From an uncultured Methanosarcinales archaeon (lineage in GTDB: Archaea; Nanobdellota; Nanobdellia; Woesearchaeales; UBA12501), in contig CAYNHV010000006.1 of NCBI GenBank assembly GCA_964397315.1, forward strand, positions 1-48,671: 48,671 bases of DNA, read 5' to 3'. The position numbers are program-made. How positions within the stretch are numbered: position 1 is the stretch's first letter; each line of letters opens with the position of its first letter. This document shows positions 24,001-27,000 of the stretch, in pieces.

Positions 24001-27000
24001 TTTCTCCTTCTCGTTCAGCTTTGTGTGCTTGGGAACAAGTATATGCTTTGACACGTCTATTTTTGTTTTAGCCACATTCTCCCCCTGCCTGTGCTGTTGC
24101 GCATCTTCCAAAACTGATTACAGCCTCTGACCCTCTAACCATAAAGCGGGCCTGAAGGGATTTGGAACCAAGGGTCTTCTTCCTTGACCCAGCAGTCAAG
24201 TGGGGTATTGCCCGCCCTGCTCGCAAACCCCACGAATCACCTTCAAACTGCTTTCACTCTTCGCTTACCTCACGCCCCTAACCATAAAGCGGGCCTGAAG
24301 GGATTTGAACCCCTGACCACTTGATGTCTGCCCTTTGCCTGATTAAAAGTTTCACCATGGCTCAAGTGCTCTACCAGGCTGAGCTACAGGCCCAACGCCC
24401 TGGCCGGGAAATTCCACAGTCTCAAAAGCTAAAAAAGCCTTTTAAGCCTTGTTTTTCTTATCAACGTCTTTTGAGCCGTTTTTGAACCCGGGTCAAAGCC
24501 TCGACAGGGCTTTATGCTAGACCGGACTACACTACCAGGGCATTTTTTACTAAAATGGCGTAAATCCCCCTATAAGCTAAAACAAAGGTGTCTAAAGCTT
24601 TATTTGCCTATAGAAAGATTGATGGGCCATATCTGCAAGAAAATTTCTCTATTTATAAATATTACGATATACGGGTGCTGTAAGTTAAGTTCCAAATGAG
24701 GTGCTGCGCTTATTTGGCAGATGGCTTCCAAGACATCCAACTTGACAGCACCCGATATACAGGATACACAAGAGGTTGTTAAAAAGTCATTAAAGGATAG
24801 AAAAACAATCCCCGCTCCCGGATTTTCGCAGTAAGCAGTTCCTGCCCATGCCTCGAACCGGGAACACCATGGTAACGGCTGAGTGTTTTTCATCCAGTCT
24901 TTACAGATAGTCTAACACTTTCTACAGCCATGTGCTCTACCATTGAGCTAAGCGGGGTGATTTTGAAGGATTTCAGCACATTTATAAATATTTTGTATCA
25001 GATTATTAATGGGTTGTTAATGTCTCACAGTATCTCACAGAGATTCCTGGCTGCCTTCATCGCAGGCAAGGCAGTTTGTATTTGTCCCAACCCCGTCATA
25101 AATTTACCATTTTGGAATAGAAAAAACAGTAAAATATAAATAGTAAAATGCGATTTAAGGGCATAAGTAAGATGAAAAGGTGATATGATGGAAACCCCAA
25201 CAAGAACTTTGTTCTGCATTCTTGTCTTAGGAGCTATAGTGATTTTCAGTGGATGCACATACCAGCCAGAGACAAATGAAACAGGCGACGTGTCATATAT
25301 CAGTGAGGATGTTGAGAACGCCTCTCTGACAGAAGACACACAAGGCAAGGATACATCAGAAACAGTGGAAAAGAGTTCAGGAGACAAGGACAAGACAGAG
25401 AAGGATGAGAAGCCCGCTTCAACACCCAACAAGATAACAGTGTATGAGGGAGAGCTTGTGGAGCTCAAGGTTAAAGGGACTGATCCTGACGGAGACAAGG
25501 TCACTTACTCATTCAGCCAGCCGCTTAATGACAATGGAAAGTGGCAGACTGAAGAGGGAGATGCAGGAGAGTATCTTGTGACTGTAACAGCTTCAGACGG
25601 AAAGACCCAGACCTCAAAGACCCTGAAGATAGAGGTGCTCTCAAGGAACAACCCTCCTAAGATGGATCCTATAGAGGATATAAGGGTGAAGGAAGGAGAG
25701 ACCATCAGCCTGAGCCCCAATGTTGTTGATCCTGACGGAGACGAAGTTACAGTAGAATACTCAGGATGGATGACCTCAGCGACAAAGAAAACAGGCTATG
25801 ATGACGCGGGAGAGCACACAGTAACTGTAACAGCAAGCGACGGAGAAACCCAGGTGCAGCAGAAAGTGAACATTGAAGTGACTGATGTCAACAGGGCTCC
25901 TGAGTTTGAGATTATAGTGAGCTGAAAACACTATTGTTTTTTATTTCCACAAAGCCGAAAACTGCAAACCTTCAGGTTGCAGATGAAGGCTTTTGGAAAG
26001 CCTAAAAATCCGATATAAGATGCAATCGCCTAACTGAAACATAAATGTTTCAGTTAGGCGATTGCTCGGATTTTTATGATTTTTCTTTTTTCCTTTCTTT
26101 TTCTGCGACAGCGTAAGTATCGCCCAATATAGCATGAGAAAACAAAAACAGCAGACAGGATTAGCGCTTAAACAGAATCAACAGCACAATGGCAGAATCA
26201 ACGAATCAATTAGGCTCTATTTTCCGGCTATGTGAACATCATTGGACCTGACCTTCTGCTGCTTCTTGCCCTTTCTCTTGATTATTACAGCAGCCTTAGG
26301 CAGCTTCAGGCCTCCGAGAATGCTGAGCCTTGACTTGATATAATAATAAACGAGCCTCTCCTCCTTTGCGTCCATGTCAAAGTTCCACTCAAGGGCAAGC
26401 CCTTTATTTGTGTTGACCTTCCTGCTGGGCTTCAGGGTGCCCTCACCATCCTTTTTCTCCACCTGAGCGATCTTGGGTATCAGGTCAATCAGCCTGACAT
26501 CCTTTATCTTCTCGTTCGTCCTGTTCTTTATTGAGATGATAACCTTAAGGTCGTTTATGCCCCCTTCCCTGCCCCCCAGAGAGTCACAGTTCTTTATCAC
26601 TGCCACAGGGTCCCTTGTGTAGATGTACACCACTCCCGCGATTATTATGATAACAAGTATGTAGAAAAGGAGCCTGTAGTTTGTGGTGAGTGTTATGACA
26701 GCGCTCTCATCAGGCTTCAGATTAATGTCCCATGCGTAATAATCATCCCCTTTTCTCTGCACAATCCTTGCGCCGGGCTCGGCTGAGGTGAAAATGCTGT
26801 CAAGCAGGCTTTTCCCAGCCATGAAAGTCTGCTGCTGCTCCACATTATCATCATTAGTAAGGGTTATTTTTGTTGTTCTCTTCAGGAATCCCTCTTCTGT
26901 CTTGTTGCTCTTTTCAAAAGGCATCCTGTAGCCGACAACCTCCATGGGAAACGTTGACCTGTAAAGCTTTTTGCCCTTCTCAGAGACTGTGATTGTCAAG

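Follow-up and report, generated by a model that had tools for sequence, protein, structure and literature searches.

On its minus strand, the window, i.e., the whole stretch of 48,671 nucleotides that was analysed, harbours neighbouring genes for tRNA-Tyr(GTA) and tRNA-Asp(GTC) whose T-loops are each split by an insert, followed by a tRNA-Lys(TTT) gene (Table 1). Unspliced, the window yields 0 tRNAs in ARAGORN under default settings and two tRNAs in Rfam at the gathering score (24290-24393 and 29893-30004, both minus strand). The unspliced tRNA-Tyr gene is matched by neither program, and the unspliced tRNA-Asp gene gives a sub-threshold partial match in Rfam only (24485-24541, 22.9 bits). After in-silico removal of the T-loop inserts, ARAGORN reports a full-length Tyr(gta) with a further intron of 48 nt, and an Asp(gtc) without any further intron; used as a query, the tRNA-Asp gene has a sole match in its own genome. 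In the tRNA-Tyr gene, T-stem (5/5) and acceptor stem (7/7) pairs are maintained across the T-loop insert. The boundaries of the 48-nt insert are ambiguous because the motif CTGTA is present twice, and its central helix at the 37/38 boundary comprises three of four pairs (hand pairing from the fold).

Table 1. Features of the tRNA gene cluster in the window
Feature	Position	Strand	Basis and remarks
tRNA-Tyr(GTA) gene, C1:G72 pair, two inserts	24809..24957	-	sequence reading and in-silico splicing
Predicted T-loop intron of tRNA-Tyr, 29 nt, after TTCGAG	24823..24851	-	between G59 (24852) and U60 (24822); 3′ terminus CGAAAA
Anticodon-region insert of tRNA-Tyr, 48 nt	24874..24921	-	ARAGORN boundaries, i(37,48)
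tRNA-Asp(GTC) gene, single T-loop insert	24396..24541	-	sequence reading and in-silico splicing
Predicted T-loop intron of tRNA-Asp, 71 nt, after TTCAAA	24410..24480	-	between A59 (24481) and U60 (24409); 3′ terminus GGAATT
tRNA-Lys(TTT) gene, intact T-loop, 2 nt downstream of tRNA-Asp	24290..24393	-	Rfam, 55 bits
Hairpin-rich stretch (~113 nt), then second copy of tRNA-Lys 3′ end	24132..24289	-	direct repeat

The two genes belong to a larger set. A scan of the genome, which is 93% complete, demanded full pairing of T-stem (5/5) and acceptor stem (7/7), the motif TTCRAN, U8 and, between TTCRAN and N60, an insert of 10-220 nt. Of 814 raw candidates, 20 gave full-length tRNAs in ARAGORN once the insert was removed, 14 of them carrying T-loop introns and six being intact tRNAs with their own 3′ end repeated downstream; a control scan of the reversed/complemented sequence resulted in 1779 raw candidates, 0 of which passed ARAGORN. 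Together with three multi-intron genes that share the signature (C17:13225, C30:13057 and C43:4552; T-stem 5/5, acceptor stem 7/7 pairs, further inserts), this amounts to 17 split genes, precisely those listed by the initial annotation, and the canonical tRNAs it expected after removal of an insert at one fixed place are recovered at full length by ARAGORN for 14 of the 17. Against its total of 41 tRNA genes, 39 loci were located, and against the nine split genes it called invisible to ARAGORN and Rfam, ten of the 17 have neither an Rfam match at E <= 1 nor an ARAGORN -i match.

In all 17 genes the T-stem (5/5) and the acceptor stem (7/7) are fully paired across the insert, which is 29-105 nt long and has the 3′ terminus YGRAAG in 15 of them. 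Only one passes the Rfam cut-off (C8:2713-2770, 29.1 bits), and several of the isotype labels assigned by ARAGORN to split genes are wrong according to manual reading. The tRNA-Ala gene reported before from the rRNA spacer was indeed placed between the 16S and 23S genes of contig C8 (16S 868-2515, tRNA 2713-2891, 23S 3098-6005). In addition, the genome carries D-loop and anticodon-stem inserts in tRNA genes. As read manually, the 39 loci include no Tyr, Asp, Phe or His gene other than T-loop-split ones; these must therefore be functional. The interruption of the T-loop by short introns at one fixed spot explains why tRNA finders overlook the split genes.

The sequences support a single position of the inserts, predicted to lie between nucleotides 59 and 60, and splicing there would yield the same loop as is found in the genome's intact tRNAs. 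In the split genes, T54-R57 pairs with YGAA or YGGA located 3-6 nt from the intron end (4/4 pairs in 16 genes, 3/4 in tRNA-Asp), and a 3-nt bulge formed by two intron bases and U60 adjoins the T-stem in 17/17. When the central helix is imposed on the fold, 2-4 bases stay unpaired on the 5′ side, facing 0-3 unpaired ones on the other strand. As modelled, the 3′ splice site is thus a stereotyped helix-bulge-helix, and the 5′ side is relaxed. The split genes conform to the relaxed motif (hBH/BHL, i.e., outer helix, one 3-nt bulge and 4-bp central helix) and not to the strict hBHBh′ motif (two 3-nt bulges, a 4-bp helix and flanking helices), from which 14 of 17 deviate; one of the three genes with a strict 3-4-3 bulge-helix-bulge is tRNA-Asp with its 3/4 central-helix pairs. 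The earlier view that the T-arm mimics the anticodon arm, with the T-stem as outer helix and T54-R57 paired with YGAA/YGGA ahead of a 3-nt bulge, therefore stands, but the 3-nt bulges it assumed on each side have to be given up for the 5′ side.

In unconstrained minimum free energy (MFE) folds the T-stem is present in 17/17 genes and the central helix in 10/17, and enforcing the latter costs 0-3 kcal/mol relative to the MFE in each of the 17. In the tRNA-Tyr gene of the window, where this difference is 2.9 kcal/mol, TTCG (54-57) pairs with CGAA, the 3′ bulge is A-A-U60, and the relaxed 5′ side has two unpaired bases and two opposite. In tRNA-Asp, A57 faces a G, and a 5′ bulge of 3 nt is accompanied by a contiguous 4-bp inner helix. 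The covariation of R57 with the intron base, likewise claimed before, is seen in all genes that can be scored (G57 with C in 7/7, A57 with T in 9/9; 16/16 unambiguous; Fisher p = 9e-5), the ambiguous tRNA-Asp (GGAATT) having been excluded from the count.

The geometry also bears on a variant of this interpretation, namely that the inserts are EndA introns cut not exactly at 59/60 but at 58/59, at 60/61 or in a staggered manner, some perhaps only after earlier removal of the gene's other introns. The 5′ side is variable, with its 2-4 unpaired bases, and in some genes the exact cut is indistinguishable by sequence because the bases at the boundary are repeated, several genes having A58 A59 A; moreover, neighbouring introns at 53/54 and 59/60 are described for ARMAN-2 (PMC3239211). 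However, only 59/60 yields the TTCRAAU loop of the genome's intact tRNAs and of intron-less orthologues, and only 59/60 positions the 3′ cut between the second and third bases of the 3-nt bulge in 17/17 genes, which makes such displaced cuts improbable.

The signature was followed in related genomes with the pattern GGTTCRAN{24,54}YGRAAGTCC, which has 12 matches in the genome itself against one for a reversed-pattern control. It matches in 97 of 151 genomes sampled from the order, some of them rated 100% complete, in agreement with its previously proposed presence in most of them, as well as in 18 of 47 genomes that belong to other orders of the class; it is thus not confined to the order, which counts against the novelty claimed for it. 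Amongst the first-listed matches from 20 relatives, 16/20 gave full tRNAs after splicing. The 150 matches listed in the order sample comprise 100 with A57/T, 37 with G57/C, 12 with G57/T and one with A57/C, so that pairing is possible in 149 (hand tally); the search pattern had constrained the intron base to Y but left its agreement with R57 free. With the T-arm and intron of the gene on C43 as a BLAST query, only 3 of 150 relatives were recovered at E <= 1e-5; this search being too insensitive, pattern matches were taken by coordinate instead. An intron family of a class II tRNA, with 14 sequences from 9 genomes, yields an alignment in which 91.8% of the cells are paired and seven pairs are changed on both sides; 0/500 shuffles reached any of the measures. 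Four pairs of the inner helix covary, as do the outer three T-stem pairs, while the central helix and the other two T-stem pairs carry no weight because they were fixed by the search pattern.

Amongst 22 tRNA-Asp orthologues in relatives, eight have an insert at the same site, with lengths from 17 to >80 nt and unrelated sequences, and the remaining 14 read uninterrupted TTCRAA-T-CCCGG at the predicted joint (partly by eye). These comparisons speak against the idea that the split genes are pseudogenes in decay or copies disrupted by an insertion, whose functional counterparts reside in the unassembled 7% of a genome that is, after all, only 93% complete. Both stems are perfectly paired in 17/17 genes and covary across genomes, the architecture recurs in the 97 genomes mentioned, including those rated 100% complete, exons are 84-95% identical to those of relatives with inserts being unrelated, and four amino acids would otherwise have no tRNA gene; decay is accordingly a very improbable explanation.

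The inserts are, in all likelihood, archaeal endonuclease introns of the relaxed hBH/BHL type at 59/60, cut by EndA and followed by joining of the exons by RtcB. Before splicing, the T-stem (49-53 paired with 61-65) would close over the insert as the outer helix, and the 4-bp central helix would be built by T54-R57 and the intron tetranucleotide YGAA/YGGA, located 3-6 nt ahead of the intron's 3′ end. The 3-nt bulge holding the 3′ cut would consist of U60 and the two final intron bases, mostly A-G, whereas the 5′ cut would be held by A58, N59 and the initial base or bases of the intron, left unpaired before an intron-internal hairpin. The single alpha-type EndA would then cut both sites, and RtcB would join the exons to the ordinary 7-nt loop TTCRAAU. 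Gene structure, covariation, intron-less orthologues and the genes for both enzymes are direct observations, from which we infer cleavage as such, the exact phosphodiester bonds and the acceptance of the relaxed 5′ side by EndA. In contigs from runs X15, X2, X3 and X4 (of 18 runs listed, with the sole RNA run at a 0.04 share of sampled words), no spliced RNA joint was found; the X15 contigs contain a relative's tRNA-Asp with the insert retained, and the only joint detected, TTCRAA-T-CCCGG, belongs to an intron-less tRNA-Asp on a DNA contig of run X4.

Enzymes of the alpha4 type are encoded by a single gene with a core of about 170-180 aa, N- and C-terminal domains and a Tyr-His-Lys triad, and have no second subunit, whereas EndAs of broad specificity (CSL/L1, ASL/L2, L3) carry a loop insertion with a conserved Lys near the active site. 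The genome encodes RtcB (C4:47509-48795) and, as had been noted before, a single EndA (C40:6629-7303; PF02778 and PF01974), in which both domains and the Y-H-K triad are present and whose best matches amongst proteins of solved structure are the N. equitans alpha subunit and M. jannaschii alpha4. No paralogue was found amongst 8512 six-frame ORFs, although a second EndA subunit could be unassembled given the completeness of 93%; in the order, 59 of 61 genomes have an EndA match, almost always a single one. Over residues 78-225, comparison with M. jannaschii alpha4 shows no insertion and one 1-residue gap, and judged from its sequence the protein looks like a plain alpha type. Amongst 50 EndA sequences, no indel separates signature-rich from signature-free relatives. 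A Lys-rich N-terminal tail, considered as a specificity device, is present in G000, G027, G042 and G002 and absent in the signature-rich G024, G016 and G007, and is therefore not required.

Group I and group II introns have a ribozyme core of hundreds of nucleotides. That the inserts are removed or bypassed without EndA and RtcB, e.g., by self-splicing or as unligated tRNA halves, could appeal to the strict motifs that alpha4-type EndAs are reported to need (PMC3239211, PMC6379350), but has hardly any plausibility in view of inserts of 29-105 nt, which are too short for such introns, of an Rfam search of 24000-25300 at E <= 10 without any ribozyme family, and of a conserved helix-bulge-helix that is the known EndA signal in a genome encoding both enzymes.

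The tRNA-Lys gene next to tRNA-Asp has inserts of 12 and 18 nt at the flanks of its anticodon loop CTTTTAA (sequence reading). Adjoining the intron genes, and outside the intron finding proper, is the hairpin-rich stretch with the second copy of the tRNA-Lys 3′ end, which forms a direct repeat of 38 nt with 92% identity (24132-24169 vs 24275-24312). In the genome as a whole, a miniature element with a second copy of bases 57-76 lies downstream of 8 of 22 tRNA genes with an intact T-loop and of 0 of 17 with a T-loop intron; in relatives, a downstream 3′-end copy was found for 1/47 intron-less tRNAs and 0/29 T-loop-intron tRNAs. A direct derivation of the T-loop introns from the 3′-end-duplicating element is unsupported, as the bases preceding the second copy are GTTC plus 1-5 nt and not YGAA.

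It is an old idea that introns protect tRNA genes from integration. The family of miniature elements might recombine inside the T-loop, and T-loop introns might interrupt its attachment site in the T-arm. A combined scenario, in which an alpha4-type EndA with a single subunit and no loop deals routinely with relaxed hBH introns and T-loop introns are retained for disrupting this attachment site, is speculative and rather unlikely to hold in full. If true, the attachment-site part would give direct within-genome support to the protection idea, for which the mutual exclusion of T-loop introns and 3′-end-duplicating elements offers a concrete test. Likewise, if a loop-less alpha4-type EndA handles the relaxed hBH introns of some 40% of the tRNAs, the strict-BHB rule for alpha4 enzymes fails in Woesearchaeales; with many relaxed motifs next to a seemingly plain alpha4 EndA, the specificity rule of archaeal splicing endonucleases becomes directly testable.

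In practical terms, ARAGORN and Rfam badly undercount tRNAs in Woesearchaeales and related DPANN bins. Here, 16 of the 17 split genes fail default thresholds and are retrieved by a simple T-loop rule, which bears on completeness estimates and on any claim of a "missing" tRNA. The BHB models of tRNAscan-SE 2.0 were, according to PMC8450103, trained on Crenarchaeota/Euryarchaeota and Thaumarchaeota.

With respect to known systems, the predicted introns resemble the canonical hBHBh′ intron at 37/38 in that a 5-bp stem serves as outer helix, the first four loop bases pair with the intron, and the cuts, as predicted here, fall after the sixth and before the seventh loop base. They differ from it by their location on the T-arm, by the paired loop bases being the invariant T54-R57, and by a 5′ bulge that is not fixed at 3 nt. 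The position 59/60 is a common intron site in Thermoproteales. For Crenarchaeota/Thermoproteales and other archaea, non-canonical BHB introns are on record (Marck & Grosjean 2003 and Yoshihisa 2014, cited in PMC6379350; PMC8450103), and they include short endonuclease introns in the D-loop, the T-loop and at other sites, with up to three per gene, a spectrum resembled by the inserts of the present genome. Their EndA, however, is an (alpha-beta)2 enzyme with a Crenarchaea-specific loop, whereas here one position prevails and the inserts share the stereotyped 3′ end YGRAAG-U60.

In Asgard archaea, according to a preprint (bioRxiv 10.64898/2026.10.13.758758), annotated introns cluster at the canonical site and in the T-arm, with many being overlooked by standard annotation, which parallels the situation described here; the lineage is a different one, with an (alpha-beta)2 EndA bearing the L1 loop according to PMC5829648, and DPANN has 0 occurrences in the text of the preprint. 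The novelty claimed initially was overstated in the light of the literature: a review (PMC6379350) treats T-loop BHB introns as known, and alpha4 EndAs of DPANN archaea, including one Woesearchaeota genome, have been linked to heavy tRNA gene disruption and incomplete tRNA sets (Kaneta et al. 2018, PMC5829648). The closest precedent is the pre-tRNA-Cys(GCA) of the DPANN archaeon ARMAN-2 (Ca. Micrarchaeum), whose hBH intron at 59/60 is cleaved in vitro (Fujishima et al. 2011, PMC3239211) and which has the position, the strict 3′ and relaxed 5′ side and the DPANN host in common with the introns predicted here from sequence alone. In contrast, the ARMAN-2 intron measures 13 nt and is one of few, and its EndA is a three-unit epsilon2 enzyme with a specific loop, as opposed to inserts of 29-105 nt in 17 of 39 loci and an apparently plain single-unit alpha type. 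While hBH introns at 59/60 and T-arm introns are already known from ARMAN-2, Crenarchaeota and Asgard archaea, those predicted here stand out by their unusual abundance.

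Direct reading of the sequence places genes for tRNA-Tyr(GTA) and tRNA-Asp(GTC), separated by a spacer of 267 nt, on the minus strand of the window, with tRNA-Lys(TTT) following tRNA-Asp after 2 bases and the TATA-like sequence TTTATAAAT lying about 27 nt 5' of the first base of tRNA-Tyr. ARAGORN with default settings reported no tRNA across the whole window, and Rfam at gathering score found only tRNA-Lys and a second tRNA (47.8 bits) with an insert of about 38-45 nt; at E ≤ 10 the 5' part of tRNA-Asp appeared as a partial match (22.9 bits), and tRNA-Tyr had no Rfam match even then. 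tRNA-Asp reads acceptor, D-arm, anticodon arm (CTGTCGA), CCGGG-TTCAAA, a 71-nt insert and T-CCCGG-CCAGGGC-G, and the 3' half of tRNA-Tyr reads CCCGG-TTCGAG, a 29-nt insert and T-CCGGG-AGCGGGG-A, with a second insert of 48 nt in the anticodon region.

The anticodon loop of tRNA-Lys, CTTTTAA, is perfect and is flanked by inserts of 12 nt and 18 nt, and tRNA-Tyr contains an internal CTGTAAA besides CTGTAGA; the intron sites near the anticodon loop of these two genes are ambiguous, and non-canonical positions (31/32, 38/39 or 43/44) are possible. The loop CTGCAAC of the second Rfam tRNA would make it tRNA-Cys, but it has A as its discriminator base, and a tRNA-Cys with U73 is encoded on another contig. 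The Tyr-Asp spacer holds a hairpin whose stem has about 15 bp (MFE -33.1, z -2.5); contigs from other sequencing runs match part of it separately, so that the element may be repeated or conserved.

Genome-wide, the splitting of tRNA genes in the T-loop is real and well above chance. An independent scan (5-nt stem, TTCRAN, insert of 10-220 nt, N60, T-stem 5/5, acceptor stem 7/7, U8) yielded 814 raw candidates, of which 20 were full-length tRNAs for ARAGORN once the insert had been cut out, while none of 1779 raw candidates passed when the same pipeline was run on reversed and complemented sequence as a control. T-loop-split genes make up 14 of the 20, and three further multi-intron genes carry the same signature; the resulting 17 lie at the places named in the initial annotation, whose total of 41 tRNA genes was not matched by the 39 loci found here (scan, Rfam and ARAGORN -i). 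The other six passing candidates were rejected as T-loop introns, since in each of them the tRNA is intact and its 3' end is repeated downstream. Ten of the 17 split genes have no match in Rfam at E ≤ 1 nor in ARAGORN -i, and only one, as a partial match, passes the Rfam cut-off.

Read manually, the split genes are Gly-CCC, Gly-GCC, Gly-TCC, Val-TAC, Val-CAC, Val-GAC, Thr-GGT, Thr-TGT, Tyr, Asp, Phe, His, Ser-GCT, Arg-CCT, Pro-TGG, one class II tRNA (probably Leu-CAA), and Ala-TGC, which sits between 16S and 23S rRNA, as had been noted earlier. The conflicting labels assigned by ARAGORN after splicing ('Cys', 'Ser-gct', 'Ala-ggc', 'Val-cac', 'Leu') are likely wrong. For Tyr, Asp, Phe and His the split genes are the sole ones located in the genome.

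An extra insert in or just past the D-arm was seen in the three tRNA-Val isoacceptors, tRNA-Pro(TGG) and tRNA-Gly(TCC), several of which ARAGORN mislabels; together with the T-loop introns, these inserts imply that many tRNA genes here have two or three introns. By eye, C/D-box-like motifs occur in the anticodon-region intron of tRNA-Phe (GTGATGA and CTGA) and in the T-loop intron of tRNA-Pro (CTGATGA). At 1648 nt, the match to 16S rRNA is longer than the model of 1478 positions, which suggests that this gene, too, carries an insertion or intron.

The T-loop inserts of the 17 genes are 29-105 nt long, and in 15 of them the final six bases are YGRAAG, the exceptions being Tyr (CGAAAA) and Asp (GGAATT). 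The covariation previously claimed between exon base R57 and intron base Y is borne out in 16 genes (G57 with C in 7/7, A57 with T in 9/9; p = 9e-5), Asp being ambiguous. Since Y pairs with R57, T54-R57 and the intron form a 4-bp helix, and a 3-nt bulge of two intron bases and U60 abuts the T-stem. This is the 3'-site geometry of the canonical 37/38 intron, shifted to the T-arm, and on this side the T-arm mimics the anticodon arm just as proposed. A 3-nt bulge had been assumed on the 5' side as well; however, with T-stem and central helix enforced, the bases unpaired on the 5' strand and opposite, respectively, number (3,1) in five genes, (3,0), (2,0) and (4,1) in three each, and (3,3), (2,2) and (4,2) in one each, so that the strict 3-4-3 motif is found in only three of 17 genes, one of them (Asp) with a central helix of 3 pairs. 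The interpretation of the inserts as predicted endonuclease introns at position 59/60, in which the T-arm takes the role of the anticodon arm, is therefore right in kind and wrong in one detail, the 5' bulge not being fixed. All the introns contain a hairpin that begins no more than a few bases from the 5' site. Enforcing the helices costs 0-3 kcal/mol relative to the unconstrained MFE fold, which contains the T-stem in 17/17 and the central helix in 10/17 genes.

Covariation in a conserved class II tRNA intron family (14 aligned sequences from nine genomes) supports the predicted structure: 91.8% of cells are paired, seven pairs have changed on both sides, none of 500 shuffles reaches any measure, and sliding the partners by one column lowers pairing to 45-59%. 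Only the inner helix and the outer pairs of the T-stem are informative here, because the central helix, like the two inner T-stem pairs, was fixed by the search pattern.

The narrow signature GGTTCRAN{24,54}YGRAAGTCC has 12 matches in the genome against one for the reversed pattern. Sampled within the class, it has at least one match in 97 of 151 Woesearchaeales genomes (74 of 116 of high quality; 94 of 148 without G112, G121 and G132, which are flagged unpublished), in line with its reported presence in most sampled genomes of the order, and by hand count in 18 of 47 genomes of other orders. In the order, about 305 matches (150 listed, 155 unlisted) compare with 35 for the reversed pattern (hand count), and R57 and Y can pair in 149 of the 150 listed (hand tally). 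The spread is patchy, with the signature in three of five other genomes of the same family and none in two genomes rated 100% complete. The first-listed match from each of 20 relatives gave 16 full-length tRNAs after splicing, and two more had perfect stems without a resolved tRNA. Among 22 tRNA-Asp orthologues, eight have an insert at the same place (17 to >80 nt, unrelated in sequence, mostly ending TGAAAG or TGAAAA) and 14, five of them read by eye rather than by script, are uninterrupted with TTCRAA-T-CCCGG.

The genome encodes RtcB and one EndA (206-225 aa by start codon) with both Pfam domains and the Tyr-His-Lys triad; phmmer found no paralogue among 8512 six-frame ORFs of the genome, which upholds the single enzyme of the initial annotation. 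Relatives of this EndA are labelled Ca. Woesearchaeota and Nanoarchaeota, which agrees with the placement given initially; among solved structures the best matches are to the M. kandleri fused enzyme, the N. equitans alpha subunit and the M. jannaschii alpha4 enzyme. The alignment with the last has one 1-residue gap over residues 78-225, so that a CSL- or ASL-type insertion is not seen; the Lys-rich N-terminal tail varies among relatives, and in 50 aligned EndAs no indel parts signature-rich from signature-free genomes. EndA is matched in 59 of 61 genomes of the order, nearly always singly; one relative, G052, has two full-length genes (C81:3148-3684 and C26:24715-25314). Divergent from EndA lies a metallo-beta-lactamase ORF with HxHxDH that by eye appears RNase Z-like, in which case two tRNA-processing genes would be side by side.

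A second copy of the tRNA's own 3' end lies 73-231 nt downstream, beyond hairpin-rich sequence (74-242 nt), in eight of the 22 tRNAs whose T-loop is intact versus none of the 17 T-loop-split genes (Fisher p = 0.006). The exact repeat mostly starts from A57-A59 of the T-loop, in two cases from the T-stem 5' strand, and reaches at most 31 nt past the tRNA end; on contig C19, exceptionally, only 6 nt of it are inside the tRNA. The copy in the window matches no Rfam family. Common to the intervening sequences are GAGCAAAGCGA-loop hairpins, which recur 19-336 nt from tRNA genes, one of them in the 16S-tRNA-Ala spacer, and whose loop has tandem G-A pairs and is K-turn-like by eye; the loop motif CGAGCAAAGYGAG occurs in 27 of 101 genomes of the order, in multiple copies in G040, G054, G035 and G017. 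These units look like a miniature-element family that would recombine or integrate in the T-loop. Passages of PMC3293823 put forward that introns at attachment sites shield tRNA genes, and the mutual exclusion of intron and 3' copy, in this one genome, fits that idea. In four tRNA genes, three of them with T-loop introns, the first 17-18 nt are copied 95-138 nt upstream, pointing to the same kind of duplication at tRNA 5' ends as well.

Coordinates of the features (without contig name: window; C, contigs of the same genome)
Feature	Position	Strand
tRNA-Tyr(GTA)	24957-24809	minus
Tyr anticodon-region insert	24874-24921	minus
Spacer hairpin	24666-24760	minus
Separately matched part	24682-24754	
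tRNA-Asp(GTC)	24541-24396	minus
tRNA-Lys(TTT)	24393-24290	minus
Second Rfam tRNA	29893-30004	minus
tRNA-Cys, U73	C10:29008	
Multi-intron split genes	C17:13225, C30:13057, C43:4552	
D-arm-insert genes	C17:13225, C27:11931, C30:13057, C38:7924, C1:25867	
tRNA-Phe	C7:47120-47269	
tRNA-Pro	C38:7924-8079	
16S rRNA match	C8:868-2515	
EndA	C40:6629-7303	
Metallo-beta-lactamase ORF	L001 (stretch of C40) 2332-3237	plus
3'-copy element	24132-24289	minus
Other 3'-copy elements	C22:11294-11423, C23:13746-13852, C35:8183-8331, C2:74365-74455, C19:3905-4153, C1:154380-154620, C9:17167-17390	
GAGCAAAGCGA-loop hairpins	C1:153581, C2:74383, C8:2642, C22:11338/17997/18103, C23:13490, C35:8252	
Genes with 5'-end copy	C8:2713, C23:13306, C26:5890, C22:18246	

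With respect to known systems, the intron class, the 59/60 position and the motif have been described before, DPANN included. In the parts consulted, Fujishima et al. (PMC3239211) report an hBH intron at 59/60 of ARMAN-2 tRNA-Cys, cleaved in vitro, a tRNA-Pro interrupted at both 53/54 and 59/60, and the requirement of alpha4 and alpha2 enzymes for the strict 3-4-3 motif, Hirata 2019 (PMC6379350) counts the T-loop as a known site of BHB introns, and an Asgard preprint of 2026 (10.64898/2026.10.13.758758) has annotated introns clustering at the canonical site and the T-arm. Likewise, passages of Kaneta et al. 2018 (PMC5829648), in which one Woesearchaeota genome was analysed, associate DPANN alpha4 EndAs bearing an 'L3' loop with increased tRNA disruption and take incomplete DPANN tRNA sets to point to unidentified disrupted genes. 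Searches on tRNA and non-canonical introns in Woesearchaeota and DPANN, including the PMC5829648 supplement, searchable for its figures only, found no paper on a dominant 59/60 class in Woesearchaeales. What is new is the abundance of T-loop introns (17 of 39 loci), their stereotyped 3' end, their spread through the order and the wider class, and the fact that they occur alongside a plain EndA of the alpha type.
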